DNA of 64,000 nt from an uncultured Solirubrobacterales bacterium (GTDB lineage Bacteria > Actinomycetota > Thermoleophilia > Solirubrobacterales > 70-9), in contig CAVXTV010000002.1 in assembly GCA_963764795.1 (NCBI GenBank), positions 143,392 to 207,391 of the forward strand. The letters are read 5' to 3'. Shown piece after piece: positions 36,869-59,427 of this stretch; position 1 is the stretch's first letter, and the number at the start of each line of letters is the position of its first letter. The position numbers and the translations under genes are program-made. The notes beneath the pieces are model-generated. The model had not been told where the DNA came from, searched no databases, and saw only the letters and a list, made by a program, of their open reading frames with translations.

Positions 36869-38505
<1,637 letters not shown>

Positions 38506-38515
38506 GCTCGCCGAC

Positions 38516-39901
38516 ATGCTCTCGCTCGACGCGCTCCCGTTGGCGGCGTCGGCGTCGAATCTGCTCGCCGCCCGCGAGCAGATGGCCTTCACCCTCGCCT
38601 TTCACATCGTCCTCTCCTGCCTCGGGGTGGCGCTGCCGGCGATGATCCTGATCGCCAACTACGTCGGCCTCAAACGCGGCGACGAGGCGGCGATGGAGTT
38701 GGCCCGCCGCTGGTCGAAGGCGATGGCCGTCACCTTCGCCGTCGGCGCCGTCACCGGCACCGTGCTGAGCTTCGAGTTCGGCCTGCTCTGGCCCCATTTC
38801 ATGGACCGCTTCGGCTCGGCCTTCGGCATCGCCTTCGCGATCGAGGGGCTCTTCTTCTTCACCGAGGCGATCTTCCTGGCGATCTACATCTACGGCTGGA
38901 AGCGGCTCAGTGGCTGGGCTCACTGGTGGTCGGGCGTGCCGATGGTGATCACCGGCATCGGCGGCGCCTTCTCGGTGGTCGCCGCCAACGCCTGGATGAA
39001 CCAGCCGCAGGGCTTCACCCTCGACGCGGCCGGCAAGGTCGTCGACACCAATCCCGGCCAGATCCTCTTCAACCCGGCGACCGGCTACGAGGCCCCGCAC
39101 ATGATCCTCGCCGCCTACATGGTGGTCGGCTTCCTCGTCGCCTCGATCTACGCGGTCGGGATGCTGAAGGGGCGCCGCGACCGCCTGCACCGGCTCGGCC
39201 TGCTTATCCCGCTGACGATCGCCTGCATCGCGACCCCGGTCCAGCTCTTCGTCGGTGACACCGCGGCGCGCGAAGTCGCCGACCACCAGCCGGCCAAGTT
39301 CGCCGGCATGGAGTGCATCCAGAAGACCGGCACCCACCAGACCGAGTACGTCGGCGGCATCTGCACCGGCGACGGGGTCGAGGGCGCGATCCCAATCCCC
39401 GACCTCGACTCCTTCCTGGTCGGCTTCCACGCCGACACCAAGGTCGTCGGCCTCGCCAACATCCCGGTCGACGAACGGCCCCCCGCCAACACCATGCTGC
39501 ACCTCGCCTTCGACGGCATGGTCGGCATCGGCAGCGCGCTGCTCCTGCTCGGCGCCTGGCTCGCCTTCGCCTGGTGGCGCCGCCGCGACATCCCCAGCAC
39601 GCCCTGGTTCCTGCGCGCCGTGGCGATCTCCGGCGCGGGAGCGATCTTCGCCCTCTGGATGGGCTGGATCGTCACCGAGGTCGGCCGCCAGCCCTGGATC
39701 GTGCAGGGCTACATGCGCACCTCCGAAGCGGTCACCGACGCCAAGGGGATCTGGTTCAGCTTCGCCCTCGTTCTGCTGCTCTACGCGGCGATCGGGACGA
39801 TCGCGGTCCTGGTGCTGCGGGGGATGTCGCGGCGCTGGCGCGAAGGCGACGCCGACACCGACGTCCCCTATTCCCCCCCAACCGAGAGCCGATGGGCCTG
39901 A
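38516..39901 (+). CDS. cydA: cytochrome bd ubiquinol oxidase subunit I
   Basis: 461 aa intact: typical CydA N-terminus and GWIVTEVGRQPW motif. The last codons and the TGA stop lie inside repeat family A copy 2. Confidence 0.95.
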   Translation: MLSLDALPLAASASNLLAAREQMAFTLAFHIVLSCLGVALPAMILIANYVGLKRGDEAAMELARRWSKAMAVTFAVGAVTGTVLSFEFGLLWPHFMDRFGSAFGIAFAIEGLFFFTEAIFLAIYIYGWKRLSGWAHWWSGVPMVITGIGGAFSVVAANAWMNQPQGFTLDAAGKVVDTNPGQILFNPATGYEAPHMILAAYMVVGFLVASIYAVGMLKGRRDRLHRLGLLIPLTIACIATPVQLFVGDTAAREVADHQPAKFAGMECIQKTGTHQTEYVGGICTGDGVEGAIPIPDLDSFLVGFHADTKVVGLANIPVDERPPANTMLHLAFDGMVGIGSALLLLGAWLAFAWWRRRDIPSTPWFLRAVAISGAGAIFALWMGWIVTEVGRQPWIVQGYMRTSEAVTDAKGIWFSFALVLLLYAAIGTIAVLVLRGMSRRWREGDADTDVPYSPPTESRWA

Positions 39902-39935
39902 AAGCGATCTATATCTTCGCTTTGAGTCCCGTCGA
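39889..39935 (+). repeat. 47-nt hairpin element, family A copy 2
   Basis: CCGATGGGCCTGAAAGCGATCTATATCTTCGCTTTGAGTCCCGTCGA between cydA and cydB. Confidence 0.8.
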
Positions 39936-39950
39936 CGGGGGTTTTCTCGT

Positions 39951-40970
39951 ATGACGCGGGCCGATGTGTGCGCCGGGATCCTCTGGGTCGGGGCGACCTT
40001 CTATGCGCTCTTCGGGGGGGCAGACTTCGGTGCCGGCTTCTGGGACCTGGTCGCTGGTGGGCCCGAGCGCGGCGAGCGGCCGCGGGCGCTGATCCAGCGC
40101 TCGCTGACCCCGGTCTGGGAGGCCAACCACGTCTGGTTGATCTTCATCCTCGTCGTCCTCTGGACCGCCTTCCCGCCGGCCTTCAGCGCCGTGATGACGA
40201 CGCTGTACGTACCGATCGCCCTGGCCGCGGTGGGCATCGTCCTGCGCGGCTCCGGCTTTGCCTTTCGAAAGTCGATCGTTGGCCTCTCGGGCCGCCGCGC
40301 CGCCGGCGCCACCTTTGCGATCTCCTCGCTCGTGACTCCGTTCTTCATGGGCGCGGTGGTCGGCGCGGTCGCCTCGGGCAACGTCCCGGCCGACGGCAAC
40401 GGCGCTCCTTTCTCCAGCTGGCTCGAGCCCCTGCCGCTGCTGACCGGGGCGATGTTCGTCGCCAGCGGCGCCTACCTCTCCGCCGTCTTCCTGATCGGCG
40501 ACGCTCGCCGCTCGGGGGACGAGGAGCTCGCCGGCTACTTCGCCCGCCGGGCCCTCGCCGCCGCCACGCTCGCCGGGGTCGCGGCTGCCTTCGGCCTGAT
40601 CGAGCTGCACGCCGAAGCCCGCTACATCTTCGATCGCCTCATCGACCAGGGCCTGCCGCTGGTGATCCTCTCCGCCCTCTGCGGGATTGGCGCCCTCGTC
40701 ATCCTCCTCTCGGCCGCCGGCCGTCGGGGCATGCGCTCGCCGGGACTGCTCCGGCCGCTCGCCGGTGGCGCCGTGATCGCGGTGATCTGGGGCTGGGGCG
40801 TCGCCCAGTTCCCCTACCTCTTGCCGACCTCGCTGAAGATCACCGAAGCGGCGGCTCCACCCGACACCCTGGCCGCCGTGGTCATCGTCTTCATCGTCGC
40901 CGCGATCCTCGTCCTTCCCGCCCTCGGCCTGCTCTACTGGCTCTCGCAGAAGGAACTGCTCGGTGAGTGA
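39951..40970 (+). CDS. cydB: cytochrome bd ubiquinol oxidase subunit II
   Basis: 339 aa from ATG 39951, within the frame of track ORF 39255..40970. GADFGAGFWDL and WEANHVWLI motifs. Confidence 0.9.
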   Translation: MTRADVCAGILWVGATFYALFGGADFGAGFWDLVAGGPERGERPRALIQRSLTPVWEANHVWLIFILVVLWTAFPPAFSAVMTTLYVPIALAAVGIVLRGSGFAFRKSIVGLSGRRAAGATFAISSLVTPFFMGAVVGAVASGNVPADGNGAPFSSWLEPLPLLTGAMFVASGAYLSAVFLIGDARRSGDEELAGYFARRALAAATLAGVAAAFGLIELHAEARYIFDRLIDQGLPLVILSALCGIGALVILLSAAGRRGMRSPGLLRPLAGGAVIAVIWGWGVAQFPYLLPTSLKITEAAAPPDTLAAVVIVFIVAAILVLPALGLLYWLSQKELLGE

Positions 40971-41643
40971 GGCCGGCGCGGACCGCGCCGTCCTCTTCGA
41001 CATCGACGGCACCATCCTCGTCACCGGGGGCGCCGGCGGCGTCGCCTGGCAGCGCGCCTTCGAGGAGCTGCACGGGGTCGAGGCAAACGTCGCCGAGCAC
41101 ACCGACGCCGGCATGACCGACCCCGAGATCGCCGCGATCGTCTTCCGCGAGGTGATCGGCCGCGAGGGCACGCAGGAAGAGCGCTCGAAAGCGATCGGCT
41201 GCTACCTCAAGCACCTCCCCGATGCCGTCACCGAGTCGGACGGCTACCGGGTGATGCCGGGGATCGAGCAGCTGCTGCCGCGCCTGATCGAGGACGGCGT
41301 CCTGCTCGGCCTGGTCACCGGCAACATCGAGGCCGCCGCCCACATCAAGCTCGCTCGCGCTCGCCTCAACCGCTTCTTCAGCTTCGGTGGCTACGGCTCG
41401 GACTCGGCCGATCGCACCGAGGTGACCAAGGCCGCCCTCGGCCGCGGCACCCTCGTCTCCGGCGGCACGCTCGGCGACGGCAGCTGCATCGCCGTTGGCG
41501 ATACTCCTCGCGACGTCAGCGCCGGCCATGGGGCTGGCATCGCCGTGGTCGGCGTCGCCACCGGCAGCTACGAGGTCGAGCAGCTGCGCGAGGCAGGAGC
41601 CGACTACGCGCTCTCCTCGGTCGTCAGCGGTTTCCCGCTCTAG
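40963..41643 (+). CDS. HAD-family hydrolase (phosphoglycolate phosphatase-like)
   Basis: LFDIDGTIL (DxDGT), LVTGN and VGDTPRDV motifs. Confidence 0.8.
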   Translation: MSEAGADRAVLFDIDGTILVTGGAGGVAWQRAFEELHGVEANVAEHTDAGMTDPEIAAIVFREVIGREGTQEERSKAIGCYLKHLPDAVTESDGYRVMPGIEQLLPRLIEDGVLLGLVTGNIEAAAHIKLARARLNRFFSFGGYGSDSADRTEVTKAALGRGTLVSGGTLGDGSCIAVGDTPRDVSAGHGAGIAVVGVATGSYEVEQLREAGADYALSSVVSGFPL

Positions 41644-41710
41644 TAGGCTGAGCGGCGGTCCCAATGCAGTTGAAGTAGGCCGTCGTCGTCGATATGGCGC
41701 AGGGGAAGGT

Positions 41711-44290
41711 TTGGCTCTTCACGCCCGCAGGGCATTGGGACTATCGCTGGTCGTCTTGGGACTGCTCCTCTTTGCGGGGCAGACCTCGGCTGCCGCCGCC
41801 GAATTCGGGATCGCTCCCGAAGGCTTCACGGTGCGGATGCTCGACGCCGAAGGCAACCCGGAGGATCGCGCCGGCGCCCACCCCGATCTTCTCCAGATCG
41901 ATTTCGCCCTAAACCTCGAAGGCAGCGAGGCCCGTGACCTCGCCTTCGAACTGCCTCCCGGGCTCGGCCTCAACGCCGCAGCGGTGCCCGCCTGCCCGCG
42001 GGCGCTGGTCGAGGCAGAAGAAGAATGTCCGGCCTCGAGCCAGGTCGGTAGCTTCGAAATCGTCCTCTCCGGCGGTGCCAGCACGGTTCTACCCCTCTTC
42101 GAGCTGGAACCCCTCCCTGGCCAGCCGGGGGCCTTCGGCACCAAGCCCTCCTTTTCGCTGCCGGTAAAGACCGAACTGCGTCCCACCGACTTCGGCATCA
42201 ACGTCGAGGTCAGCGACCTCCCGCAGGAACCGGTCGCCGAAGGGCACCTCGAGCTGTGGGGCGTCCCCGCCGATCATCAAGAAGGCACCGGGATCCCGCG
42301 CAGGGCGCTGCTGAGCGCGCCTTCGAGTTGCGGACCGCTGGCATTTGGCTTCCGCGCTCGCTCCTGGGACGAAGGCTCGCCGTGGAGCGAAGCGACGGCG
42401 GAAACCCCGCCCCTGACCGGCTGCGAGAGCCTCGCCTTCGAACCCGGGGTCCAGATGCGGCTGAGCAACCCGGTGGCAGATTCGCCGACCGGGCTGACGA
42501 CGGACCTGAGCATGCCCGAAGAAACGGCCGCCGAGGAACTCGCCCAGGCCCAGATCAAGGACGTCAGCATCGAGATGCCGGCCGGGATCGGCCTTTCCCC
42601 GGGGGGAGCGGCAGGGCTCAGCGCCTGTAGCGACGCCGAGCTGGGGCTTGGCAACGGAGCCGCTCCGCGCTGTCCTCCGTCATCCAAGGTCGGTGTGGTC
42701 GAACTCGCCTCGCCGGCGATCGCCGGCGCCCTCGCCGGGACGATCTACCTCGGCACCGAAAAGCCCGGTCAGCGGTTTCGGGTCTTCGTGGTCGCCAGCG
42801 CTGCGGGCATCCCGATCAAGTTCGTCGGCACCCTCCAGGTCGCGCCCGGCAGCGGCCGGATCTCGGCGGTCCTGCAGAACCTGCCACCGCTGGCGATAAA
42901 TCGAATCGGGATCGGCTTCGACGGGGGCAGTGGCGCGCTGTTCGCCTCACCGCTGGCCTGTGGCACGGCGAACGCCGTCGTCGGTTTCACGCCCTATGGC
43001 GGTGGTGCCCCGGTGGCGGTCTCGAGCGGGGTGGCGGTCGCTCCGCTGCCGCCGGCGACCGCGTGCACGGCGCCTTCCTTCTCGCCACAGCTGGTGACCG
43101 CGGCGACTAGTCGCCGAGCCGGCCACGAGACCTCGTTCTCCTCGACCGTGCGCCGCCGCCAGGGAGAACAGCTGCCATCGCGGCTCTCTTTCACGCTGCC
43201 GGCGGGGTTGAGCGCGAGGCTGGGGGCGGTCCAGGCCTGTCCGCCGGCAGCTGTGGCGGCGGAGAGTTGTCCCGACTCGAGCCGGATCGGCAGTCTGCTT
43301 GCCGAGATCGGCTCCGGCTCCAGTACCGCTGCGTTGCGTGGCGGCCTCTTTCTGACCGGGCCCTACCGCCGCGCGCCCTTTGGCGTGCTGATCGAGATCC
43401 CCGCTGCGATCGGTCCCTTCGATCTCGGCTCGATCTCGCTGCGTGGGGGGGCTGAGCTGGATCCGCGCAGCGGCCGGCTCATCGTCGCCACCGATCGCCT
43501 CCCGGCCTCGGTCGAAGGGGTCGATGTCCGCTTCCAGACGATCGAGCTGGACCTGGACAGGCCGGGGTTCCTCCGCAACCCGACCAGCTGCTCGGCCAGC
43601 GCCACCGATGCTTTGCTGGAAGCGCAAGAAGGCGCTTCGGCACGCGCCAGTAGCCCCTTCCGCGCTCGTGCCTGCAAGCAGCTCGGCTTCAAGCCGACGA
43701 TGCGAATCGCCCTCGTCGGGCGCAAGCAGCTGCACCGGCGCGGCAGGCCAGGCTTGCGCGCGACCGTGCGCCTGCGGCCCGGCGACGCCAACCTGCGGGC
43801 GCTGAAGATGTCGCTGCCCCCGGCGCTCGCCTTTTCCTCGGGTGGGCTCGGGGAGATCTGCTCTCGTGCCGACGCGATTGACGGGCGCTGCCCGGCCAAG
43901 TCGCGGATCGGCAGCGCCAGCGCCACCACCTCGCTGCTCGGCGAACCGCTCCGGGGCTCGCTCTACGTTGCCCAGCCCAACGGCAGCGGCCTCCCTGACA
44001 TCTGGGTCACGCTCAGCGGCGGCGGCATCGAGGTCAACCTGAAGGGCACCGGAGTCAGCCGCCACGGAAGGTTCGTGATCGACCTGGGCGGCTTGCCGGA
44101 CATCCCGCTCTCGTCATTCGTGCTGAAGCTCCGGCCGGGGGGCGCCATATCCCTCGCCGCCCCGCCCTGCCGCGGAGATCGACCGCGCCACTTTGCGGCG
44201 CCGGTCGCGATCGCCGGGCAGAACGCTGCCCGGCGCGCGTTCCAGGCTCAGGTCGGGCTTGGGGTCCACTGCACCGCCGGTTCGAGATGA
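41711..44290 (+). CDS. secreted protein built from four ~205-aa modules with a C-x(8-14)-CP-x-x-S-x-(V/I)-G motif
   Basis: In-frame TTG 41711 gives a signal peptide (LALHARRALGLSLVVLGLLLFAGQTSAAAA). The motif recurs at about nt 41993, 42626, 43238 and 43858. ATGA overlap with the MMPL gene. Confidence 0.7.
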   Translation: MALHARRALGLSLVVLGLLLFAGQTSAAAAEFGIAPEGFTVRMLDAEGNPEDRAGAHPDLLQIDFALNLEGSEARDLAFELPPGLGLNAAAVPACPRALVEAEEECPASSQVGSFEIVLSGGASTVLPLFELEPLPGQPGAFGTKPSFSLPVKTELRPTDFGINVEVSDLPQEPVAEGHLELWGVPADHQEGTGIPRRALLSAPSSCGPLAFGFRARSWDEGSPWSEATAETPPLTGCESLAFEPGVQMRLSNPVADSPTGLTTDLSMPEETAAEELAQAQIKDVSIEMPAGIGLSPGGAAGLSACSDAELGLGNGAAPRCPPSSKVGVVELASPAIAGALAGTIYLGTEKPGQRFRVFVVASAAGIPIKFVGTLQVAPGSGRISAVLQNLPPLAINRIGIGFDGGSGALFASPLACGTANAVVGFTPYGGGAPVAVSSGVAVAPLPPATACTAPSFSPQLVTAATSRRAGHETSFSSTVRRRQGEQLPSRLSFTLPAGLSARLGAVQACPPAAVAAESCPDSSRIGSLLAEIGSGSSTAALRGGLFLTGPYRRAPFGVLIEIPAAIGPFDLGSISLRGGAELDPRSGRLIVATDRLPASVEGVDVRFQTIELDLDRPGFLRNPTSCSASATDALLEAQEGASARASSPFRARACKQLGFKPTMRIALVGRKQLHRRGRPGLRATVRLRPGDANLRALKMSLPPALAFSSGGLGEICSRADAIDGRCPAKSRIGSASATTSLLGEPLRGSLYVAQPNGSGLPDIWVTLSGGGIEVNLKGTGVSRHGRFVIDLGGLPDIPLSSFVLKLRPGGAISLAAPPCRGDRPRHFAAPVAIAGQNAARRAFQAQVGLGVHCTAGSR

Positions 44291-47200
44291 GCGCTCGAGG
44301 CAAGCCCAAGCCGCCGTCAGGGGGCCGCACGCTCGCCACGCGCGTGGCGAGCCTGGCCACGCGGCGTTCGCGTCTCGTCGTCGCCCTCTGGGTCGTCCTC
44401 GTCGCCGTGCTCGCCTTCCAGGGCCGCAACGCGGAAAAGGAATTCCAGGTCCACCCGCTGTTGGTGAACGGCAGCGAGAGCAAGCGCGCCCACGAGATCG
44501 CCCTGCGCGAGTTCGGCAACGACTACCCGATGATCGTGCTGCTGCGAGGCCCCCAGGCAGCGGTCAAGCGCCAGGGCGAGATGCTTGCCGAGCGGCTCAG
44601 CCGGCAGCCGCGCATGCTGGTGATATCGCCCTGGGCGAGGGGGGCCTCGATCGACGGCCTGCACGCCGCGGCCGGGCGTGGCAGCGCTGCTACTGCGCAC
44701 GGCAAGCCGCGAAGGCGACACGGTCTCCGGCCTGCTGCCGCCGGTGCAGCGCCAGGTCGACGCGACCGTCACCGGCCCGGTTCACGCCAGCATCGCCGGC
44801 CTGCCGGTGATCATCGACTCGTTGCGCAACTCCAGCGCCGACGCGGCCTCGCTCGGCGAGCTGATCGCGATTCCGATCCTCCTCTTCGTCCTCCTCTTCG
44901 TTTTTCGTTCGTTGCTTGCCGCGATTACGCCGCTGCTCATCGGTGGCACCGTCGTAATCGCCAGCCGCGGCCTGCTCAGCCTGCTGGCGGGGGTAGTTGA
45001 GCTCGACCTCTTCGCCTTGGTTGTCAGCGCGATGATGGGCCTCGCGCTCGGGGTCGACTACTCGCTGCTGGTCGTCTCCCGTTTTCGTGAAGAGCGGGAG
45101 CGAAGTGATCTGCCGACCGCGATCGAGACGACCGTCAGCGCCACCACGCGCTCGATCCTGCCCGCTGGCGGTGCCTTGCTGCTGGCGATGCTGATGGTTC
45201 CCGTCCTGCTGCCCGGGTTGCTGATCCGCTCGGTGGCGATCGGCGTCGGCATCGCCACCGCGCTCAGCATGTTCGCGGCCTTCTGCATCGTTCCGGCCCT
45301 GCTGGTTCTCTTCGGTAGGCACCTCGATCGCTGGGCGCTGCCGAGGCGGGATACCTCACGGGGGGCGGCCCTGCGTTGGAGTCGCAGGCTGAGAAAGCAC
45401 CCCGCGATCGCGCTCGCCTTCATCTTCGTCCTCCTGGTGCTCTCGACCCTCGCCTTCAATCTCGACTCCGGCACCGCCACGGCCGGCCTCCTGCCTCCTG
45501 ACGACCCGGGCCGTCAGCAACAGGAAGAAGTCGAAGGTGCGCTCGGGCCGGGCTGGGTTGCGCCGACGGAAGTCGTGATCGACGGCCGAGGCACGCCGGT
45601 CACCTCGCCGGCGCGCCTGCGGGCGATCGCCGCTTTCCAGCGTCATGTCGAAGCGGATCCGGGCGTTGCGGGCATGGCCGGCCTGATCCCGATCGAGCGC
45701 AGCGCCAGGAAGCTCTCTGGCCTGGGCGGGCAGCTGGCCGCCCAGGAACGCGGCTTGGACCGGCTCGAATCCGGCATCGCTCGGGTCGGGGGTGGGGCCG
45801 CTCGCAACACCGCGGGGCTGCGCCAGGCCGCCGCCGGCTCGAGGACGCTCGATGCCGGCGTCAAGGCGGCCAACGCCGGTGCCGGCGCCCTGGCAAGCGG
45901 CTTGCAGCAGACCAGCGCCGGCTCGAGTCGCCTGGCGCACGGGCTCGACAACGCCGGCGAAGGCAGCGGCCAGGTTGCTCGCGGGGCGCATAAGGCCAGC
46001 GGTGGCGCCAGCAAGCTCGCTCGCGGCTTGGCCCGGGCGCAGGAACAGACGGGAGAAATCCAGGGCGGCGCCAGGCTGTTCAAGAACGCGATGCGCTCGG
46101 GTGAAGCCCGGCTCGGCGAAGTCAAGGGACCGCTGCAGGGCAGCGAAGAACAGCTTGCCGCCGCCCGGCAGGCGCTGCTGCAAATGACCACCGGGCGCAG
46201 CGACTCCGAATACGCCGCTGCGCTTGCCGCCGTCGAAGCCGCCAGTCGCCAGCTCACCGGCAAGGATCCACAAACTGGAGAACCGGAAGACCCGTCCTAC
46301 GATGGCGTCAAGGCGGGGGTCGAACGGGCGAACGGTCAGTTCGGGGTCGGTGTCTACCTGGCGGAAAGGCAGGACAAGAACGGCGCCCAGGCGAGTGAAG
46401 GGATCGAAAAGCTGGCCGGCGCCTCGGTCCGCCTCGAACATGGCTTGCAACGGCTTGCCAAGGGCGGCCAGCAGGTCTCCGAAGGCGTCGCGGCGCTCGC
46501 CCAAGGTGGGCAGCAGCTGTCGCCCGCCCTGAGGAGGCTGAGCCACGGGGCGGGGCGTCTGACCGACGGCCTCGGCTTGCTTGCCAGCGGCAGCGGCCAG
46601 CTGACCGACGGCCTCGAAGAAGGCGCGCAGAAGTCGCGGGCCCTGCCCTTGGCCCTGCATCGCATCGGCCGGGGTCTGGAAGGCCGCAACAGCTCGGGCG
46701 GCGGGCTCTCCCAGAGCGAACTGCAGCAGCGCTCACCCGGGCTCTTCCACTCGGCCTACTTCGTGCTGGCTGCACTTGACGGCAGCTCACCGACCAAGCG
46801 AGCGCAGCTCGGCTCGCTGCTCAACGTCAATCGGGGCGGCAGCGATGCGCGCCTGCTGATCATCCCCCGCGACCCGCCGACGACCGCCGCGGCAAAGGCG
46901 ACGACCGAACACCTCGAAACCGGTGCCAGCCAGCTCGAACGAAAGACCGGTGCCGAGGTGCTGGTCGGCGGGGTGGGGCCGGCCGATATCGCGATCAACG
47001 ACGAGTTCCGCGCCCAGGCGCCACTGGTGCGACTCGCACTCTCGCTGATCAGCCTGATCATCCTGGTACCGCTGTTGCGATCGCTGGTGATCCCGCTGCT
47101 GACGGTGGTGATCAACCTGATCACGGTCAGCGCCACCTTCGGCGTGCTCTCGTTGCTCTTCAACGGCTCGCTGTTCGGTGGACCGGGCTACGTCGACACG

Positions 47201-47587
47201 ACGATGATCCCCAACATCATCGTCGTCATCTTCGCCCTCGCGATCGACTACGAGGTCTTTATCTTCGCCCGCATCCGGGAGGAGTACGTGCGCACCGGCT
47301 CCACCCCCGCCGCGGTGGCCGGTGGACTCGATCGCACCGCCCACGTCGTCAGTGGCGCGGCGGTGATCATGATCACCGTCTTCCTCGCCTTCGCGGCCTC
47401 GGAGTTCGTCACGATCCGTGACTTCGGCGTCGCCCAGGCCACAGCCGTCTTCATCGATGCCTTCATCGTCCGGCTGGTCATCGTGCCGGCACTGATGCTC
47501 TGGCTCGGCGACCGCTGCTGGTGGATGCCGCGCTGGCTCAGCTGGTTACCGGGCAGGGGCTCCCCAGCGCTGGGGGAGGAGGGCTGA
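44287..47587 (+). CDS. MMPL (RND-superfamily) transporter with large xxxLxxG heptad-repeat insert, frame change near 44670
   Basis: N-terminus in ORF 44287..45000, remainder in ORF 44678..47587. Two 6-TM MMPL halves (GLALGVDYSLLVVSRFREE; ALAIDYEVFIFARIREE) flank about 330 aa of Gly/Ala/Leu heptads. Confidence 0.8.
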
Positions 47588-47599
47588 AGCCAGCCTCGG

Positions 47600-48812
47600 C
47601 TAGGCGAGTGAGCAGCGCGCCTGGTAGATCGAGAGAAAGCCGTTCTCGAAACCGTTGCGGGCGGCGCGCAGGTAAAGACGCCAGACGCGGACCCGTTCCG
47701 GCCCGGCCAGGCGCAGCGCCTCGTCGAGGTTCTCGTCCAGCCGCCGTGCCCAGTGGCGCAGGGTCTCGGCGTAGTCGGCGCCGTGCTCGGAGACGTGGCG
47801 GGTAATGAAGCCGGCCCGCTCCAGCGCCAGCAGCACCCGCGAGAGTTGCAGCGGTTCGCCGTCGGGGAAGACGTAGCGCTCGGAGAAGGCGGCAGCGTCG
47901 GGGTCGGTATGGCGCAGGCGGGAGATGCCGTGGTTGAGCAGGCGCCCGCCGGGCTCGAGCAGGCCGGCCAGGGTGCGGGCGTAGACGTCGATCTGCTCCT
48001 CGCCGACGTGCTCGACCATGCCGATCGAGGCGATCGCGTCGAAGCGCTCGCCGCTGCTCGCGAGGTCGCGGTAGTCCATCACGCGGACCTCGACCCGGTC
48101 GGCGACGCCGGCTTCCTCGGCCCGCTGCCGCGCCCGCTCGGCCTGCGGCGGCGAGAGCGTGATGCCGAGCACGCTGGCGCCGTACTTGGTCGCCGCGCGC
48201 AGTGGGAAGGCGCCCCAGCCGCAGCCGACGTCGAGCACCCGCTCTCCCTCTTTCAGCGCCAGCTTGCGGGCGACCGTGTCGAGCTTCTCTTCCTGGGCCT
48301 GCTCCAGCGTCTCGGCACCCTCGGCGAAGAAGGCGCAGCTGTAGGTCATCGACTGGTCGAGGAAGAGGGCGAAGAAGTCGTTGGAGACGTCGTAGTGGTG
48401 GCGCACCGCCTTGGCGTCGCGCTCCTTGCTATGGCGCCGGCCGCTGAGCACGCAGCTCGGAGTCGGGCCGGCGCGGCGGCCGCTGGATCCCGGCGGCGCG
48501 CACCGCGCCGAGCAGCAGGCTGCGCTTGTCGGCGCCGTCCAGCGCCGGCGGCTGCCAGCGGTCGAGCAGCTCGATCACGGCGTCCATGTCGTCGACCTCG
48601 ATGTCGCCGCTGACGTAGGCGCGGCCGAGCCCGAGCTGGCCCGGCGCGCGCAGCGCGTGCGCGGCGGCCCGCGGCGAGCGGATGTAGAAGGTCGGCCCGC
48701 TGCCATTGCTGGCGGGCAGTCGGGTGCCGTCCCAGAACTCGACCTTGAACGGTCGCTCGGGGATGCGCGCTTCGATCTCGCGGCGCAGTGGTGCGGTGCT
48801 GGAGAAGGCCAA
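47600..48812 (-). CDS. cfa: cyclopropane-fatty-acyl-phospholipid synthase family methyltransferase, frame change near 48440
   Basis: HYDVSNDFFALFLD and VLDVGCGWG in ORF 47600..48451. The N-terminal domain lies in ORF 48429..48812. Confidence 0.85.
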
Positions 48813-48865
48813 GGCGCACGACTTTACCTTTCCCCGGACCTGAGCCCGTATGATCGGCGCTCCGA

Positions 48866-49795
48866 ATGGAAAGCAGCGGCGTTCTTCCCTCAGATATTCA
48901 GCCGGTCGCCAACGAGACCCGCGACCGCATCATCACCGGCCTGGTGACGCTGGTCCCCTTCGTCGCGCTCGGCCTCGCCGGCTGGCAGGTCTGGGGCAAG
49001 GCCCTGCACTGGAGCGACGTCTTCCTCTTCCTCGGCATGTACCTCTTCACTGGGCTGGGGATCACGGTTGGCTTCCACCGCCACCTCACCCACCGCAGCT
49101 TCAAGGCGAAGACCTGGCTGCACGGCCTGCTGGCGATCCTCGGCTCGGCGGCGATCGAGGGCCCGGTGATCTCCTGGGTGGCCGACCACCGCAAGCACCA
49201 TGCCTTCTCCGACGAAGAGGGGGACCCGCACAGCCCCCACGTCGACCACGGCCACGGTTGGTCGGGAGCGATGCGCGGCCTCTTCCACGCCCACATGGGC
49301 TGGCTCTTCATCCACACCCAGCGCGGCAACAAGGAACGCTTCGCGCCGGACTTGATCAAGGACCCGACGATCAACTGGGTCGACCGCACCTTTCTCTACT
49401 GGGCGATCGGCGGCCTCCTCCTCCCCTTCGCGCTTGGCTGGGTCATCGGCGGCACCCTCTTCGCCGCGCTCACCGGCCTGCTCTGGGGCGGCCTGGTCCG
49501 CGTCTTCGTCCTCCACCACTTCACCTACAGCATCAACTCGCTCTGCCACGTCTTCGGCAACCGTGACTTCGAGACCACCGACGAGTCGCGCAACCTGGCG
49601 CTGATCGCGATCCCGACCTTCGGCGAGGCCTGGCACAACAACCACCACGCCTTCCCCACCTCCGCCACCCACGGCCTCGGCCGCTGGCAATTCGACCTCT
49701 CCGCCGTGGTCATCGACTCGCTGGAGAAGCTCGGCCTGGTCTGGGACGTCGTTCGGGTTACTCCCGAGCGGATGGCGGCCAAGGCCGCCTCCTAG
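48866..49795 (+). CDS. membrane fatty-acid (acyl-CoA/acyl-lipid) desaturase
   Basis: Three His boxes: HRHLTHRSF, HRKHHAFSD, HNNHHAFP. Confidence 0.9.
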   Translation: MESSGVLPSDIQPVANETRDRIITGLVTLVPFVALGLAGWQVWGKALHWSDVFLFLGMYLFTGLGITVGFHRHLTHRSFKAKTWLHGLLAILGSAAIEGPVISWVADHRKHHAFSDEEGDPHSPHVDHGHGWSGAMRGLFHAHMGWLFIHTQRGNKERFAPDLIKDPTINWVDRTFLYWAIGGLLLPFALGWVIGGTLFAALTGLLWGGLVRVFVLHHFTYSINSLCHVFGNRDFETTDESRNLALIAIPTFGEAWHNNHHAFPTSATHGLGRWQFDLSAVVIDSLEKLGLVWDVVRVTPERMAAKAAS

Positions 49796-52167
49796 GGCGC
49801 TTCGGTCGATTCGTACCAGTCGATCCAGGCATTGCATGCCTGGCTGAGCGGCACGATGCGGTGCGGTTTGGCGGGCACCGCGACCAGCTCTCCGAGGGTC
49901 GCCTTGCCCGAGTAGCCCGTCAGGCGCTGCAAGGTGCTCGGCTCGGTGGCGGTGATCGTGAAGTGGAGCGGGCCACCGTTGCTTCTGACTTCGCCCGCAG
50001 GCCAGAACTGGCCCTCGTTAGCGAGGCTGATCGTGTTCGGCCGCTGACCGTCGAGCGCGGCCGGCAGTGCCTGGTCGAGGCCCGGCGCGCTCAGGGTGAG
50101 GCCGAAGGGGGAGAAGTACTGGATCGAGAGGCGCCAGCGGCCGCTGGGCAGGCGCAGCGTCTGTGAGGTGCTCTGGCCGGCTTCGAGTTCCGCCGCGGGG
50201 CTCCAGCGGCCCTTGCCGCCAATCACGGCACCCGGGAAGAGCGAGGCGCGGCCGCGGCTGGCAAGCAGGATGCGGATCTCCGGCGAGGCGCAATCGGCAT
50301 GGGCCGCCGGTTCGGTCCCCTCGAGCAGCACGTGGCGATCCTCAGGCGGAGTGCCGGTGCGCTTCCAGAGGATGTAGGAGGGGGTGGCGGCGACCCGCTT
50401 GAAACCCGACGGCGCTTCGCTGTTCCAGGCGGCGCGGCCGGTGATCACGTAGGGGAAGCGGTCGAGGGTGGCGTGCGAGAAGGAGTCGAAGTCGATCGGG
50501 CTGTAGGCGTCGCCGGTGTCGAACGGCTTTTCCGGGCTGGGAGAGACGTCGGCGTCGGGAAACTCGACCAGGGGGACGTGGGTGTCGGCGCCGATCAGCT
50601 CGTAGGCGGCGTAGCGGTCCTGGCCGGCGTAGAGGACCGGTTCACCGTGCACGATCGGGATCAACGCCTGCAGCTCGGAGCCGTGGCCGGGTGGACCGAT
50701 CGGGGCGTCGCGCAGCACCAGCAGGCTGGAATAGACCGCCCCCGCCACAAACACCACCGCCAGCACGCTCCAAGCCGCCCGCCCAACTCCCCCCGACGGG
50801 CCTGAAAGCGATCCATATTTTCGCTTTGAGCCCCGTCGGCGACCGAGGTTGACCAGCAGCGGGCGGATCGCGATCAGCATCGCCAGCGGCGCGGCAATCA
50901 TCAGCGCCTTGGCCTGGGAGTACTCGCCGCTGCTGGCGAGCGAAGCGAGGTAGAGAACCGTGCAGCCGGCGAGTGCCACCGGCACGGCGAAGTTGCGCCG
51001 GCGCAGCCACCAGGTGCCGCCGAGCAGGATCGCGGTCGCGGCGATCACCGTCGCCAGCCCGGTCAGCTGGGCACCGCCAGCGGCGTTGAGCCGGTAGTTG
51101 GAGGCCGGCCAGACGCCGAGCACCTCGATCGGCGAGACCGGCCCGTAGGTGTTGGTGCCGGCGACCCGGTTGAAGCCGTGGATGAAGGCAAAGGGACCGA
51201 CGACGGTGAGCACCGCGAGGACGCCGAGCACGGCGACGATCAGCAGCGTAGCCGGCTGGCGTAGGGTGCTCAGCCACGCCCGCGGCGCCAGCGCGCGGCG
51301 CAGCGGGGCGAAGGTGAGCGCCCAGATGGCGAAGATCACCACTGGCCAGGCGAGCCCGGCGAAGCTGTAGGAGAAGAAGATCCCGGTCGCCAGGGTGAGG
51401 CCGAGGATCGCCGTGCCGAAGGGTGCGGGCGCTCCCGCCTCGCCTCGCTCGCGCTCGAGCCGGTGCAGGAGGAGGGCGAAGGCGAGCACGAAGAGCGCCT
51501 CGCCGGTCTCCTTGAAGGCGCCCTGGGCGAAGTAGGAGGCGCCGAGGTAGGGGATTGCGACCAGGGTCGCGGCGAGCACCCGGCGCCCCCGGCCGAGGTC
51601 GTCGAGCGCGGTGAGGGTGACGAGCGCGGTGAGGATGCCGATCGCGAAGATCTCGCCGACGAAGGCCTGGCCGAGGCCGATGCCCGGCAGGGCGGCGATT
51701 GCCGCCGCCAGCGCATGCGGTCCCAGCGGGTAGCCGGCTTCTGGCGCCGGGCCGAGGCCGCTGCGCAGCCACTCGGCCCAGGCCAGGTGCAGCCCGAGGT
51801 CGTTGTTGAAGCCGACGCCGACGATCCCCCAGCGACCGCTGACCGCGAACGGGATCGAGAAGGCGAGGGTGACGAGGAGCGCGACCGGCCAGCCCTCGCG
51901 CAGCAGCGATACGCCGCCGGCTTGACGCGGCCGCTGCCAGAGCAGGGCAGCCGCGGCGATGACGAGGACGACGAGGCCGATCGTCGCGCTGGTCGCGTGC
52001 CCGGGCGCCCGGGCGAAGAAGCCGGTCACCGTCAGCACGGCGCCGAAGCCGACCGCGGGCGCCAGCCAACGCCGCGACTCGCCCCCGCCGGTGAGGCCGA
52101 GGATCGCGCGTCCAACCAACAGCGAGGCGGCGCAGATCAGCGCCGCCGAGGCGTAGGTCCCGATCAT
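49792..52167 (-). CDS. GT-C-like polytopic membrane protein with C-terminal extracytoplasmic domain
   Basis: 791-aa open frame: about 12 TM helices, then one further TM helix and about 310 soluble residues. It contains repeat family A copy 3 in frame. The family assignment is inferred from topology only. Confidence 0.6.
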   Translation of the reverse strand: MIGTYASAALICAASLLVGRAILGLTGGGESRRWLAPAVGFGAVLTVTGFFARAPGHATSATIGLVVLVIAAAALLWQRPRQAGGVSLLREGWPVALLVTLAFSIPFAVSGRWGIVGVGFNNDLGLHLAWAEWLRSGLGPAPEAGYPLGPHALAAAIAALPGIGLGQAFVGEIFAIGILTALVTLTALDDLGRGRRVLAATLVAIPYLGASYFAQGAFKETGEALFVLAFALLLHRLERERGEAGAPAPFGTAILGLTLATGIFFSYSFAGLAWPVVIFAIWALTFAPLRRALAPRAWLSTLRQPATLLIVAVLGVLAVLTVVGPFAFIHGFNRVAGTNTYGPVSPIEVLGVWPASNYRLNAAGGAQLTGLATVIAATAILLGGTWWLRRRNFAVPVALAGCTVLYLASLASSGEYSQAKALMIAAPLAMLIAIRPLLVNLGRRRGSKRKYGSLSGPSGGVGRAAWSVLAVVFVAGAVYSSLLVLRDAPIGPPGHGSELQALIPIVHGEPVLYAGQDRYAAYELIGADTHVPLVEFPDADVSPSPEKPFDTGDAYSPIDFDSFSHATLDRFPYVITGRAAWNSEAPSGFKRVAATPSYILWKRTGTPPEDRHVLLEGTEPAAHADCASPEIRILLASRGRASLFPGAVIGGKGRWSPAAELEAGQSTSQTLRLPSGRWRLSIQYFSPFGLTLSAPGLDQALPAALDGQRPNTISLANEGQFWPAGEVRSNGGPLHFTITATEPSTLQRLTGYSGKATLGELVAVPAKPHRIVPLSQACNAWIDWYESTEAP
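50793..50839 (+). repeat. 47-nt hairpin element, family A copy 3 (inside a coding frame)
   Basis: CCGACGGGCCTGAAAGCGATCCATATTTTCGCTTTGAGCCCCGTCGG. Translated on the minus strand within ...GRRRGSKRKYGSLSGPSGGVG.... Confidence 0.8.
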
Positions 52168-53576: not shown

Positions 53577-54940
53577 CTAGTCGCCTCGGGTGGCGTGCGC
53601 CTGGCCCCGCGGTTCCGTCGCCAGGGCGGCGTCGATCAGCCCGGCGCCCTCGCGGGTCGTCGGTTGCCCGAGGCTGCGTGCCGTGCGGCGCAGGCGTTTT
53701 GTCACCGCGGCCACCCGGCCTGGCGTCGGCTTGCGCTGGACCGTGCCGCTGGCCAGCACCATCGCGGCGACGCCGGAGACGTGCGCGGCGGCCATCGAGG
53801 TGCCGACGTAGCTGCCGGGCTCGCCGAAGCGGCGCGTGCTGCCGGCCTTCAGGGTCACCTGGTAGATCGAGCCCGACGAGATCGAGGGGCAGCCGGCGAG
53901 TGGCGGGCCGCCGCCGGGGGCAACCACGTCGACGTCACGGCCGGCCAGCGAGTAGAAGCCGAGGCAGCCGCCCTCGGTGCTGCCGCCGACGCCGATCGTA
54001 TGCGGGGCGGTCGCCGGCGGGGCGACACAGGTCTCCGAGCCGAGGTTGCCCACCGAGGCGACCGTGATCACTCCCTGGTGGTAGGCCTGCCGTAGAGCTT
54101 CGTCGACCCCGGGCACTTCGCGGCCGCAGCCGAAGTTGAAGCTCATGTTGATCACGTCGGCGCCGTTGGCGACGGCGAAGCGGATTCCCTTGGCGATGTC
54201 GGTCGGCCCGTCCGCGGCCCTCGGCGTCGAGCACCCGCACCGGCATCAGCTTCGCCCGGAAGGCGAGGCCGGTGAGGCCGATGCCGTTGTTGGTCTTCTC
54301 GGCGATCGTGCTGGCGACATGCGTGCCGTGGCCGTTTTCGTCGAGCGGCAGGCGGTCGCCGTCGACGAAGTCGTGGCCCTTGACGAACTGCCTGGCGGTG
54401 AAGTCGGGGCTGCGGCGGAAGCGCTTGCCCAGGGAGCGATAGGCGATCCCGGTGTCGAGCACGGCAACGGTCACGCCTTCGGCGCCGGGACGCCCCGCCG
54501 CTTCCAGGTTTTCCCAGGCACCGACGGCGTCGATGCCGCCGGGGGAGAGGGGCACCAGCGGTGTCGGCAGGCCCTCCCAGGGCAGGAAGTTCCACTGCTT
54601 CGAGACCCAGCCGCCGGGCGGTCCCGGGGGCCCGCTGAGCGGGCCGGGGTCGTTGGGAACGGTCGGTTCTTCTTCGCCCGTCGAGGCGGTGGCGATGAAG
54701 TCGGGCGCGGCGTAGGCGACGTTGGGATTGGATTGCAGCGCGGCCGCCGCCTCACCGACGCTGGTCTGCCGTGGCAGGTCGATGGTCCGCGCCCGCTCGG
54801 ATCCCGCCAGCTTGACGATCAGCTCGTGAGGGGCGAAGCCGTGCGCGGCCGCGACGCCAGTCGCGGCGCTGGCTCGACGCGGGTGCAAGCGTCAGGGCCG
54901 CGAGCAGGGTCGCGGCGGCGATCGGAAGGCGTCGATTCAT
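53577..54940 (-). CDS. secreted S8 (subtilisin-like) serine peptidase, frame changes
   Basis: Signal peptide from ATG 54940. Catalytic D (VAVLDTGI), H (HGTHVAS) and S (GTSMAAAHVSG). Pieces lie in ORFs 54752..55741 (first residues), 53935..54888 and 53577..54155. Confidence 0.8.
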
Positions 54941-56244: not shown

Positions 56245-58243
56245 AGCGGCCGCGGGCTGCGGCAGTGCTTGTGGAGCCGCTGGCAGCGGCAGCACGATCT
56301 CCTCGCCTCCACCTGCGGGGGCGGCCGGCCGGTGGCCGCGCAGGCGCTCGTGGTTGCAGACGACGTAGCACCACTCCATCAGTCGCATCCGCGAGGCCGA
56401 GTCGATTTCGGTGATCGTCGCGCCGACCAGGTGGCGTCCTTCGGACTTCGCGGCAGGAGCGCACCTCGACCTGTGCCGCCACCTCGTGCGAGCTGCCGGT
56501 GGCGTCTTCGAGCTGGAGCAGGATCGCCGGTTTGTCACCGACCGCAAGCGGGGCGTCGAGGACGAGGCCGACGCCGGCGGCGCTGGCGTCGATCAGGCGA
56601 CCGCTGACGTGGCCGTCGTCGGAGTAGCACTGCGGCCGCGGCGTCGCCCTCGAAGCGGTAGACGAGGCGGCGCTGCTGGCGCTTGCCGACGGCGAAGAGG
56701 GTGCGCAGGATGCGGCGCATCTCGATCAGGCCGAGCAGCGGCACGATCACCGGCGGCGATGCCCGGCAGGTCGGGCAGCGGCCCGACTCCGGCGAGGTCG
56801 AGCAGGCGCAGCACGGTGCCGGCACCGACGACGACGGCGCAGAGGATCACCAGACGCAGCTTGCGCACCGACTCGAGCCCGCCGCCACCGGTGCCCTGCT
56901 TCGGCGTCACCTTGAAGGCGGTGTGGCCGGGGCGGAAGATGCAGCGCAGGGCGCGGGTGTAGATCTCCATCGTCAGCAGCTCGTAGTGGGCGGTCTCGCC
57001 GATCTTCATGTAGCCGCGGGCGAGGGCCGAGCCGGCGCCGAGGTTGAGCGTCACGTAGGGCAGCCAGAGCGCGGCGAGCGCCACGACGCTGATCTTCATC
57101 GGCAGCTCGCCGGTCCACATCACCAGGCCCAGCGTCGCCATCAGCAGCAGCCGCATCGGCGGTGCCAGGTAGGCGAAGAGGCTGGCGAAGTAGGAGAGCC
57201 GCTGCAGCGGTTTCAGCTCCTGGGCGCGCAGGGGGGACTCGGGCAGGGTGAAGACGGCGAGGTTGCCGCGCGCCCAGCGGTCGCGCTGCAGCAGGTAGCC
57301 GTCGAGGTCGTGCGGGGCGAGGCCCTGGACCAGGACCTCGTCGTGGTAGCGGCTCTTCCAGCCGTGGCGCTGCATGCGGATCGTCGTGTGGAAGTCCTCG
57401 GCGATCGTCTCGGTCGCGACGCCGCCGATCTCGAGCAGTGCCTCGCGGCGGATCAGCGCCGCCGAGCCGCACCAGTAGGCGGCGCCGTGGCGGTCCTTGC
57501 CGGGGCAGACGACGCGGTAGAAGAGCGACTGCTCGTGGCGGCCGACGACGTAGTGCTGGACCGAGTCGTGGTTGAAGAAGTCGTGCGGGCTCTGCACCAA
57601 GGCCATGCGCTCGTCGTCGAAGTAGCCGACCATCGCGTCGAGCGCGTCGGGCATCGGCACGTGGTCGGCGTCGAGCATCAGCACCAGCTCGCCCTCGGTG
57701 CGGTTGAGCGCCGCGTTGATGTTGCCGGCCTTGGCGTGTGAGTTGTCGGGCCGGGTCAGGTACTCGGCCCCGGCCAGCCGGGCGAGCTCCGCCATCTCCG
57801 GCCGTTTGCCGTCGTCGAGCAGGTAGGTGGTGTGTGGATAGGTGAGGGCACGGCAGCCGGCCAGGGTCGGCGGCGACCACCTCGTGCGGCTCGTCGTAGG
57901 TGCAGACGTAGACGTCGACCGAGCGCCCCGGGGTGGCGGGAGGCCGCACCGCGGGCGGCCGCGACCAGGAGAACCAGGCGAGCGTGCCGAGCGCCCAGAG
58001 CCCGTAGATCTCGGTCACCAGCAGCATCCCGTAGGCGACCGGGCTGGCTCCCTGGCCGCTCCAGCCGATCCGCCAGATCAGGTAGCCGACCCCCCAGAGC
58101 AGGGCGACGATCGCCAGCGTGCGCAGCAGCAGCGGATGGCGATCGAAGAAGCTCCCGAGCCGGGTCTGGGCGGTGCTTTCCACGCGGCTGCATCGACGCA
58201 AACCCGCCGGTTCTTGAGTCCCGAGTTCCGGCCCGAAGACCAT
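56242..58243 (-). CDS. BcsA-like processive GT2 beta-glycan (cellulose) synthase with C-terminal PilZ domain, multiple frame changes
   Basis: DADH, QSPH, EDFHTT and QRDRWARG (QxxRW) in ORF 56593..57795. The N-terminal TM region lies in ORF 56747..58363. The PilZ-like RQQRR...DASAAG is spread over three frames at 56245-56700. Confidence 0.75.
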
Positions 58244-58284
58244 CGATGCCGCCCAACCGTAAAATCGGCCCCTGACTGAGTCCC

Positions 58285-58371
58285 GGAGGGGTGCCGGAGT
58301 GGTTGAACGGGGCAGTCTCGAAAACTGTTGGCGTCGCAAGGCGCTCGTGGGTTCGAATCCCACCCCCTCCG
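58285..58371 (+). tRNA. tRNA-Ser (anticodon CGA)
   Basis: GGAGGGGTGCCGGAGTGG...GCAGT-CTCGAAA-ACTGT, long variable arm, T arm GTGGGTTCGAATCCCAC, acceptor 7/7. Confidence 0.9.
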
Positions 58372-58384
58372 CTTTGCGAGTCGG

Positions 58385-58873
58385 CTATTTCAAGTAGGGC
58401 GCGATCCAAGAGCCGTAGGCCCGGATGAACTCGCGGGCAGCCGGGAGGCCCAACTCGATTGCGTCGTGCAACCGGCCGGCTTTCATTCCCGGGTAGTCGT
58501 GCTCCACGTCCGACCGGGCTCTTTGGGTGCGCTTCAGATTTCGGCAGAGCGAGGCATTGATCGCTCCGGCTTCCCTCAGTGCATCGAAGACCCGGGCTGA
58601 GTTCGCCTCGTGAGTGCCGGGAAGCTCCAGCTGCGCCAGTCGACATCCCCGTTCTGCAAGCTCGACGACGTAGTTCTGTACCCGACTGAAGGCACGTTCG
58701 ACGGCCTGCACCCTGTTGTAGGCCTTGATCCCGTCCTTCCTTTCGAAGGCTCGTTTGAACCCGCTCAGCTCGAAGCCCTCACCAAACTCCTCCATCGCGC
58801 TTTCGAGCGCCAGGATCTCTTCGGGAAGATCCTCGAGTCGGTCGACGATCTCGCTCTGCAGCCGCTTCGACAC
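58385..58873 (-). CDS. HEPN-domain protein (toxin-like)
   Basis: 162 aa with an Rx4H motif (RSDVEH) near the C-terminus. Its start overlaps the stop of the MNT gene by 1 nt. Confidence 0.65.
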   Translation of the reverse strand: MSKRLQSEIVDRLEDLPEEILALESAMEEFGEGFELSGFKRAFERKDGIKAYNRVQAVERAFSRVQNYVVELAERGCRLAQLELPGTHEANSARVFDALREAGAINASLCRNLKRTQRARSDVEHDYPGMKAGRLHDAIELGLPAAREFIRAYGSWIAPYLK

Positions 58874-59427
58874 TACGTCTCGCTGACCAGGCGATCGATC
58901 CCTGTCAGGGCGCGGCGGCTGCGCTCGCGCAGGTGCCGCCGGGCACGGCGATCCATTGCCTCGGCTTCGGAGCCGAGCCGGGCCCAGAGGCCCTCGCGGT
59001 CAACGATCGTGCGACCCTCGGCCACGGCCTCGGCTACGAGCACTGGATTGGCACGGGCGTCCTCCAGCGCAAGCACGTCGACACGCCGGCCGAGCAGCTC
59101 TTCGAGCTTCAGCTCGAGGTCAACGATGCGAATCGACGAGGAATCGCGCATCTCGACGATCAGGTCAACATCGCTTCCCTCGTTGTCGTCTCCTCGCGCG
59201 GTCGAGCCGAAGAGGAGGGCAAAGCGCACGTTCTGCTCGGTTCTCAGCGCTTTTCGCAGGGCCGAGAGAAGCCTCCAGGAGCGACGCAGATACTGCTTCT
59301 CGACGGCACCGAGCCTCAGCCTGCGCGGCGTCGGACGCTCCGCCCTCAGCGTTCCTTCATTGAACGCCCGACGCAAGGTTCGCTCGTTCACGTCGATTTG
59401 GCGCGCCAATAGCTCTAGCTCCGTCAT
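58873..59427 (-). CDS. nucleotidyltransferase (MNT-type) with N-terminal HTH (antitoxin-like)
   Basis: LLFGSTARGDDNEGSDVDLIVEM (GS-x-DxD nucleotidyltransferase motif), preceded by an HTH-like ERTLRRAFNEG. Confidence 0.75.
   Translation of the reverse strand: MTELELLARQIDVNERTLRRAFNEGTLRAERPTPRRLRLGAVEKQYLRRSWRLLSALRKALRTEQNVRFALLFGSTARGDDNEGSDVDLIVEMRDSSSIRIVDLELKLEELLGRRVDVLALEDARANPVLVAEAVAEGRTIVDREGLWARLGSEAEAMDRRARRHLRERSRRALTGIDRLVSET

Follow-up and report, generated by a model that had tools for sequence, protein, structure and literature searches.

The window analysed here, a stretch of 64,000 nucleotides (nt) from an uncultured Solirubrobacterales bacterium, contains a gene for an 859-amino-acid (aa) protein of four modules, for whose family we use the working name FAM, and this gene runs directly into that of an MmpL-type transporter (MMPL). 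We tentatively propose, with slightly less than even confidence, that FAM acts outside the cytoplasm as the partner protein of an MmpL-type lipid exporter, which would make it MmpS-like while placing it outside the MmpS family. The proposal is drawn from the stop/start overlap that couples the two genes, an association with MMPL that survives gene rearrangement, the lipid genes that accompany the pair, and an insert in MMPL at the site where MmpL5 carries its coiled coil, and equally from the features of FAM itself, namely a signal peptide, 16 invariant cysteines, no anchor, a confident model of the whole chain, and the existence of fusions between FAM and a secreted partner family of ~700 aa that we call PROP. 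How MmpL-type pumps take hydrophobic cargo past the membrane is an open question, and the locus offers a testable candidate for the partner involved, since here an MmpL with a predicted stalk longer than the MmpL5 coiled coil is accompanied by a large, probably rigid and disulfide-stapled secreted protein, which a beta-propeller-like protein and a polyketide synthase (PKS) join in other clades.

The initial annotation of this DNA had noticed that the FAM stop codon overlaps the MMPL start codon as ATGA, and had read co-expression of the pair from it. The overlap is present as described, and the pairing is borne out in other genomes. In a sample of 79 loci from species-representative genomes, grouped by identity to the window FAM, MMPL lies directly downstream of FAM in 26 of the 28 loci with at least 47% identity (and anywhere in the locus likewise in 26/28), and the stop/start overlap, either NTGA or 8 nt long, is kept within this class; among FAM-MMPL loci overall, ~22 overlaps are of the NTGA type and ~11 of the 8-nt type. 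On this arrangement it is reasonable to regard FAM and MMPL as translationally coupled and co-expressed within an envelope system. At 41-46% identity (21 loci), MMPL is directly downstream in 12/21 and anywhere in the locus in 18/21, the exceptions being mostly the first copy in a PROP-FAM-PROP-FAM-MMPL array. At 35-40% identity (12 loci), it is directly downstream in 0/11 and anywhere in the locus in 9/12, with MMPL placed upstream of FAM on either strand, and in the 18 loci below 35% identity it is found neither directly downstream (0/16) nor anywhere in the locus (0/18). Pooled over all classes, MMPL is nearby, meaning within 7 kb, in 53/79 loci, and three gene orders include it: FAM-MMPL, PROP-FAM-MMPL, and MMPL-x-PROP-FAM, the last on either strand. 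That the association with MMPL survives these rearrangements argues for a functional linkage. The link to MMPL is thus real, but it is confined to one large FAM subfamily, and the initial description of FAM as dedicated to MMPL fits the close orthologues and fails for the most divergent ones, for which PROP is the commoner partner.

PROP is a more general partner of FAM than MMPL is. It lies directly upstream of FAM in 47 of 77 loci, usually with a 4-nt overlap, and in order of decreasing identity to the window FAM the classes show it there in 2/27, 20/21, 12/12, and 13/17 loci; proteins in which PROP and FAM are fused were also found (P0385). Members of the PROP family are secreted, measure ~700 aa, and have a GRAWELV motif, weak NHL and PD40 matches, and basic tails, and by their sequence they look like beta-propellers.

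A lipid-gene context recurs in every FAM arrangement. In the window-like loci the gene order is cydAB-HAD-FAM-MMPL-(ArsR)-CMAS-desaturase-791-aa membrane protein, and in ~13 loci of a sister clade the order cydAB-HAD-PROP-FAM-MMPL is followed immediately by a type I PKS, which in both scanned cases (L040 and L037) has the domains acyl-AMP-ligase-ACP-KS-AT, with the ligase as loading domain. In loci without a neighboring MMPL, the genes found behind FAM are those for acyl-CoA dehydrogenase and PKS (L046), for a PKS (L042), or for an AMP-ligase (L051), and in the third arrangement genes for a phosphopantetheinyl transferase (PPTase), a CDP-alcohol phosphatidyltransferase, or an SDR protein are close by. 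In mycobacteria, an mmpL gene beside pks and fadD genes marks a lipid-export locus, and the FAM loci of the sister clade resemble such loci in having pks- and fadD-type neighbors.

The window MMPL is covered in two stretches by PF03176 and is matched by TIGR00833 (E 1e-56). After removal of one inserted base, which is considered below, hydropathy of the 1099-aa protein gives transmembrane helix (TM) 1, periplasmic domain 1 (PD1), TM2-7, PD2, and TM8-12, which fits the 12-TM topology of MMPL, or HAE-2 RND, transporters. Its closest solved relative is MmpL3 (E 6e-46), with MmpL4/5 at ~2e-17. A role in SecDF-like protein export was considered and rejected, the strong matches being to MmpL3 and MMPL and those to SecDF being weak superfamily echoes. 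The insert in PD2 contains 31 heptad positions of the L..G type and 7 prolines only, and it is predicted from this composition to form a long helical stalk. The xxxLxxG heptad-repeat model TIGR03057 scores 17.6 bits against it, near the cut-off of 18.6, and we take this repeat to be characteristic of YhgE/Pip-type proteins with long extracellular helical stalks. The insert would therefore share its stalk type with YhgE/Pip and EsaA-type proteins, although in the window the repeats are inserted in a 12-TM MmpL and not in a YhgE/Pip scaffold, and no N- or C-terminal YhgE/Pip model matched.

The closest known analogy to a stalked MmpL with an extracytoplasmic partner is the MmpS5-MmpL5 system of M. 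tuberculosis. A 196-aa insert at the PD2 site of MmpL5 makes up a coiled coil of 18 nm that efflux requires, and the small operon partner MmpS5, which has a disulfide-bonded immunoglobulin (Ig)-like domain, is likewise needed for the pump to work and is predicted to wrap around the coiled coil (PMC12501195). This coiled coil is not long enough to extend to the outside, and a further, unidentified partner has been postulated (PMC12501195). FAM-MMPL is like MmpS5-MmpL5 and MmpS4-MmpL4 in that an extracytoplasmic protein of Ig-like or beta-sandwich type, with disulfides that in FAM are presumed, is encoded directly upstream of an MmpL of the HAE-2 RND group, and both MmpL5 and the window MMPL have a long helical insert, predicted in the latter case, at the same PD2 site. 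The differences are nonetheless substantial. MmpS proteins are ~140 aa long and consist of one Ig-like domain on an uncleaved N-terminal TM helix, whereas FAM has four modules in 859 aa, begins with a signal peptide that looks cleavable, and lacks an anchor; the TM domains of MMPL are nearer to those of MmpL3 than to those of MmpL5; the insert consists of ~340 aa of Gly-rich xxxLxxG repeats and not of a 196-aa coiled coil; other FAM clades usually have the beta-propeller-like partner; and the hosts are Solirubrobacterales rather than Mycobacteriales. The MmpS family model (PF05423) had no match at E<=1 to whole FAM or to any of 29 module sequences, and FAM shares with MmpS its operon position, while differing in model match, size, architecture, and anchoring. 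The undescribed envelope or surface system that the initial annotation had suggested must therefore be qualified, since the MmpS5-MmpL5 arrangement precedes the concept (PMC12501195), even though FAM does not belong to the MmpS family.

The proposed start of the FAM gene is TTG at 41711, inside a longer open reading frame (ORF) at 41495-44290 (+), and it is preceded by the Shine-Dalgarno-like sequence GGGGAAGG. In length the 116 orthologues range over 842-883 aa, and they align with the window protein from its N-terminus onward. This N-terminus, MALHARRALGLSLVVLGLLLFAGQTSAAAA/EF, looks like a cleavable-type signal peptide, and its sequence would take FAM out of the cytoplasm; the RR of the n-region is conserved among orthologues, and export may accordingly be by either Sec or Tat. 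The C-terminus, ...VGLGVHCTAGSR, has neither an LPXTG motif nor a hydrophobic tail, and is thus without a membrane or wall anchor, and a Pfam search found neither SLH nor other wall-anchoring domains in FAM. Promoter and terminator scans over 38300-48900 gave nothing that exceeded shuffled expectation.

The four modules of ~205 aa that the initial annotation had recognized are confirmed from the sequence and the orthologues, and its signal peptide agrees with our reading of the N-terminus. The pattern C.{6,16}CP..S.[VI]G occurs exactly four times in FAM, with its first Cys at residues 95, 306, 510, and 717, and at least one such motif appeared in 5 of 20000 shuffled FAM sequences. The corresponding codons begin at nt 41993, 42626, 43238, and 43859, the first three as originally given and the last corrected from 43858. 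The preceding motif h-x-h-x-(L/M)-P-x-G-h had been ascribed to all four modules, and it is present in the first three (LPPGL, MPAGI, and LPAGL) with the fourth having A in place of G (LPPAL). A hidden Markov model (HMM) built for any one module, from orthologues only, recognizes the remaining window modules at E 1e-6 to 2e-17, and profile-profile alignment with hhalign relates the modules to each other at a probability of 92-99%. The four modules are truly homologous. The 16 cysteines of FAM are distributed as four per module in equivalent positions, and they are invariant or nearly so across the 116 orthologues. Cys 3 and Cys 4 of each module flank the last hairpin, with Cys 4 just ahead of a conserved L-x-F-x-P that opens the next module. 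There are thus probably two disulfides per module, one closing the short C-x(9-14)-C loop and the other tying the last hairpin to the linker into the following module.

The AlphaFold2 model of FAM, made with the 116 orthologues, is all-beta with a mean pLDDT of 88 and a pTM of 0.77, and module 3 modeled alone gives 11 strands with a pLDDT of 90 and a pTM of 0.84. The position of Cys 4, together with the high pTM of the whole chain, suggests that FAM may be a stiff rod with a fixed geometry between modules. Whole-chain Foldseek searches of the PDB returned generic Ig-like arrays only, with TM-scores <=0.19, including an archaeal S-layer, adhesin repeats, integrin legs, transglutaminase C-domains, and complement MG domains. 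With a single module there were zero PDB matches at E<=0.001, the nearest folds being BslA, type II cohesins, and YcnI (E 6e-3 to 3e-2, TMq 0.33-0.44), which cover ~120-170 residues only and have no sequence similarity to it, and a search of BFVD gave one weak phage match, to Gp680 of Bacillus phage G. Sequence searches with the whole protein, single modules, the 29 module sequences, and a module profile found no Pfam, NCBIfam, or PDB sequence family, and the module profile had 0 PDB matches even at E<=10. Family HMMs for Ig-like, fn3, cadherin, and He_PIG domains gave nothing above threshold for FAM or the 29 module sequences, and the only strays, both sub-threshold, were LpqV with the whole protein (E 0.13) and He_PIG with one of the 29 module sequences (E 0.009). 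The initial annotation had been unable to place the module in any known domain, and this view is sustained; structural comparison of one module, which it had recommended, leads to a generic beta-sandwich. As modeled, the FAM module is a large beta-sandwich without a specific known relative.

With these features in mind, the way in which FAM might serve a lipid exporter can be outlined. FAM would be exported and would fold as a chain of four beta-sandwich modules of ~205 aa, and termination-reinitiation at ATGA would cause it to be made in a fixed ratio with the RND transporter, which would be driven by the proton motive force. It might then dock on or alongside the helical stalk of ~340 aa in MMPL and act along it as a strut, a sheath, or a hand-over platform, thereby stabilizing or extending the route of a hydrophobic cargo out of the membrane and across the wall, much as MmpS5 may do with its Ig-like domain, and possibly Rv0455c as well, on the coiled coil of MmpL5. 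The cargo could be a modified fatty-acyl or polyketide lipid, and in most other clades PROP would be a third component. The analysis shows the anatomy of FAM, its conservation, its gene linkage, and the lipid genes that keep recurring beside it, and from these we infer its export and disulfide bonding, a physical contact with MMPL, the kind of cargo, and any direct part of FAM in lipid handling. A stronger formulation, that FAM, usually with PROP, and a long-stalked MmpL make up a wall-spanning, multi-component lipid export machine of an undescribed type, we consider rather unlikely. Were it true, Thermoleophilia would have their own version of the "missing" partner that mycobacterial MmpL4/5 pumps are believed to need outside the cytoplasm, and Solirubrobacterales would deposit PKS- or fatty-acid-derived surface lipids by this route.

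Several observations weigh against FAM being the partner of a lipid exporter. FAM folds, in the model, as a generic beta-sandwich in which no resemblance to lipid carriers or bridges could be detected, and LppX, LprG, LolA-like, and Lpt folds are absent from the top 50 Foldseek PDB matches of both the chain and the module. Since no MMPL occurs within 7 kb of any of the 18 most divergent paralogues, and since several PROP-FAM pairs stand in unrelated contexts, the core function of the family cannot depend on MMPL. In the clade of the window, PROP has been lost from the operon, apart from the two loci counted above. In L034 and L044 (~1650-4650), the gene ahead of PROP-FAM is not for a stalked transporter; a short 729-aa MMPL without the insert is followed there by a CDP-alcohol phosphatidyltransferase and then by the pair. 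The synteny comes largely from one bacterial order, to which shared ancestry may contribute, and the MMPL gene lacks an intact frame in this assembly.

A different interpretation, unlikely in our estimation yet the most serious of the alternatives, is that FAM is a structural surface protein, S-layer-like, sheath-forming, or similar to a fibrillar adhesin, usually paired with the beta-propeller-like protein, and that its link with MMPL is indirect, for example through a common envelope layer. The whole-chain Foldseek matches are to such Ig arrays, including the Nitrosopumilus maritimus S-layer (8c8o, E 3e-9), an adhesin repeat (6xi3), a pilin-like protein of C. diphtheriae (3lso), and ClfA, all of which, like FAM, are secreted tandem beta-sandwiches; genomes have many paralogues, with giant versions of up to 7161 aa; the K/R-rich tails of distant homologues and of PROP proteins could bind anionic wall polymers; and the absence of MMPL near the most divergent paralogues would be expected. 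The resemblance is nevertheless remote, with identities of 7-10%, TM-scores that stay at or below 0.19, and FAM modules roughly double a classical Ig domain in size, and, unlike those arrays, FAM has no anchoring or lattice domains and is encoded in the context of a transporter. A TTG start, the lack of a detectable strong promoter, and coupling in an operon to a 12-TM transporter are ill-suited to a highly expressed lattice protein, and these, with the lack of SLH or another anchor, set FAM apart from S-layer proteins, just as the lack of LPXTG and of a hydrophobic tail separates it from sortase-anchored adhesins and pilins. The recurrence of lipid and PKS genes in the neighborhood also argues against a purely structural role.

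Less likely again is that FAM is an extracellular or periplasmic receiver or carrier that holds or shuttles an exported lipid or polyketide, for example a siderophore- or surfactant-like molecule, or a metal, and is not built permanently into the pump. Two of the best single-module folds would suit such a role, namely the hydrophobin BslA, which has a hydrophobic cap, and the copper-binding beta-sandwich YcnI (TMq 0.37-0.44), PKS, acyl-AMP-ligase, and PPTase genes adjoin FAM even where MMPL is missing, and module 1 contains the invariant His/Asp motifs GxHPD and WGVPADHQ. These fold matches are, however, weak (E ~6e-3, none <=1e-3) and to generic beta-sandwiches, and four rigidly linked, disulfide-bearing modules seem more strut-like than carrier-like.

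The reading frame of MMPL needs separate consideration. The initial annotation was right that an MMPL gene follows FAM, and missed that one extra base at ~44663-44666 splits it into 44287-45000 (frame 1) and 44678-47587 (frame 2), which leaves the frame broken in this assembly. Across the junction, orthologues read ...ISPW..G..IDGLNPRPGVAALL..., the window has one base more, and deletion of this base yields 1099 aa without an internal stop. The neighboring CMAS-like gene is also split by one extra base, at ~48452 (ctg-C-gtg), with flanks that share 93-98% identity with the unbroken 403-aa orthologue of L026, and housekeeping genes are broken on related long contigs as well (transketolase and PGI in L001). 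Because the neighbor has the same defect and related contigs have fragmented housekeeping genes, both breaks are probably assembly indels. That the locus is decaying, with MMPL a pseudogene and FAM a leftover without a present link to transport, is very improbable in spite of the two broken frames, as each break is just one inserted base, the flanking protein is 60-98% identical to intact orthologues with no more stops, fragmented housekeeping genes on related contigs are typical of assembly indel errors, and GC content at third codon positions is at the coding level in both halves of MMPL. We also rejected an old pseudogene, given the high conservation of sequence around both frameshifts.

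FAM belongs to a large "dark" family without a Pfam or NCBIfam model, here mainly from metagenome-assembled genomes (MAGs) of soil Solirubrobacterales, an order whose cell envelope has been little studied, and the present analysis gives this family a context. More than 1068 relatives are present in a 90%-clustered collection, and a profile search of 50%-identity representatives gave 8234 clusters at E<=1e-3 and 2928 at E<=1e-30. All family members with organism names are from Solirubrobacterales, its families, or unclassified Actinomycetota, and include Conexibacter arvalis DSM 23288 and a Patulibacter MAG; the cluster records of distant representatives have only the labels "hypothetical protein" and "Actinomycetota". 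There are often several FAM copies per genome, although in the 64-kb window neither tblastn nor a profile search of the six-frame translation found a second one, and distant homologues carry additional K/R-rich C-terminal tails. Giant homologues, such as P0121 (7161 aa) and P0126 (6729 aa), have 15-16 matched stretches of the four-module unit and may be true giant surface proteins or merged gene calls; MBI4897769.1 (NCBI), a 7167-aa protein from an Actinomycetota MAG, falls in the same cluster. Literature searches on Solirubrobacterales with MmpL and on the Conexibacter envelope found nothing relevant, and nothing on the FAM family. The features of the window are collected in Table 1.

Table 1. 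Positions of FAM, MMPL, and associated features in the window
Feature	Position (nt)	Strand	Remarks
HAD-family hydrolase gene	40963..41643	+	67 nt upstream of FAM; 4-nt overlap with cydB; position kept in window-like and sister-clade loci
FAM gene, 859 aa	41711..44290	+	TTG start; stop TGA 44288-44290; orthologue alignment and AlphaFold2 model
Putative signal peptide, residues 1-29	41711..41797	+	RR n-region, hydrophobic core, AxA-type site; 116-orthologue consensus; modeled as helix with low pLDDT
Module 1, residues 30-242	41798..42436	+	Cys 95, 106, 207, 238; family-wide WGVPADHQ and GxHPD
Module 2, residues 243-456	42437..43078	+	Cys 306, 321, 417, 452
Module 3, residues 457-659	43079..43687	+	Cys 510, 520, 627, 655; alone modeled as 11-strand beta-sandwich, pLDDT 90
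Module 4, residues 660-859	43688..44287	+	Cys 717, 727, 820, 854; no C-terminal anchor
ATGA stop/start overlap of FAM and MMPL	44287..44290	+	NTGA 4-nt or 8-nt overlap in most orthologous loci
MmpL-type RND transporter gene	44287..47587	+	PF03176 E 5e-56; 1099 aa once one inserted base is removed
Single-base insertion	44663..44666	+	breaks MMPL frame in the assembly
PD2 insert of MMPL, ~340 aa (predicted stalk)	45710..46732	+	G/A/L/Q-rich, xxxLxxG heptads; between TM7 and TM8
CMAS-like (cyclopropane/methyl-branch fatty-acyl) methyltransferase gene	47600..48812	-	convergent with MMPL; DUF7884 and CMAS domains; S-adenosylmethionine-dependent
Fatty-acid desaturase gene	48866..49795	+	syntenic in all window-like loci
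Secreted PROP homologue, 1198 aa	59687..63283	+	weak NHL/fn3/PD40 matches, SRAWEMV motif, K/R-rich tail

Beside the desaturase gene, and syntenic with it in all window-like loci, 49792-52167 (-) encodes a 791-aa polytopic membrane protein without a Pfam match, whose C-terminal part is a large non-membrane domain; it was considered as a FAM paralogue and rejected as an unrelated protein. A 192-aa ORF at 53577-54155 (-) covers no more of the subtilase (Peptidase_S8) profile than positions 114-279 and looks truncated or indel-broken. Conexibacter arvalis DSM 23288 has PROP-FAM pairs in L061 and L062; in L061 a 1044-aa FtsX/MacB-type permease, a different type of envelope transporter, is encoded at 2-3136, ~1.4 kb upstream of the pair, and a 324-aa gene on the opposite strand lies between the two. 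The window itself ends 717 nt past its PROP homologue, and its GC content is 0.58-0.63 over positions 1-4000, ~0.65 over 58000-64000, and ~0.70 elsewhere.

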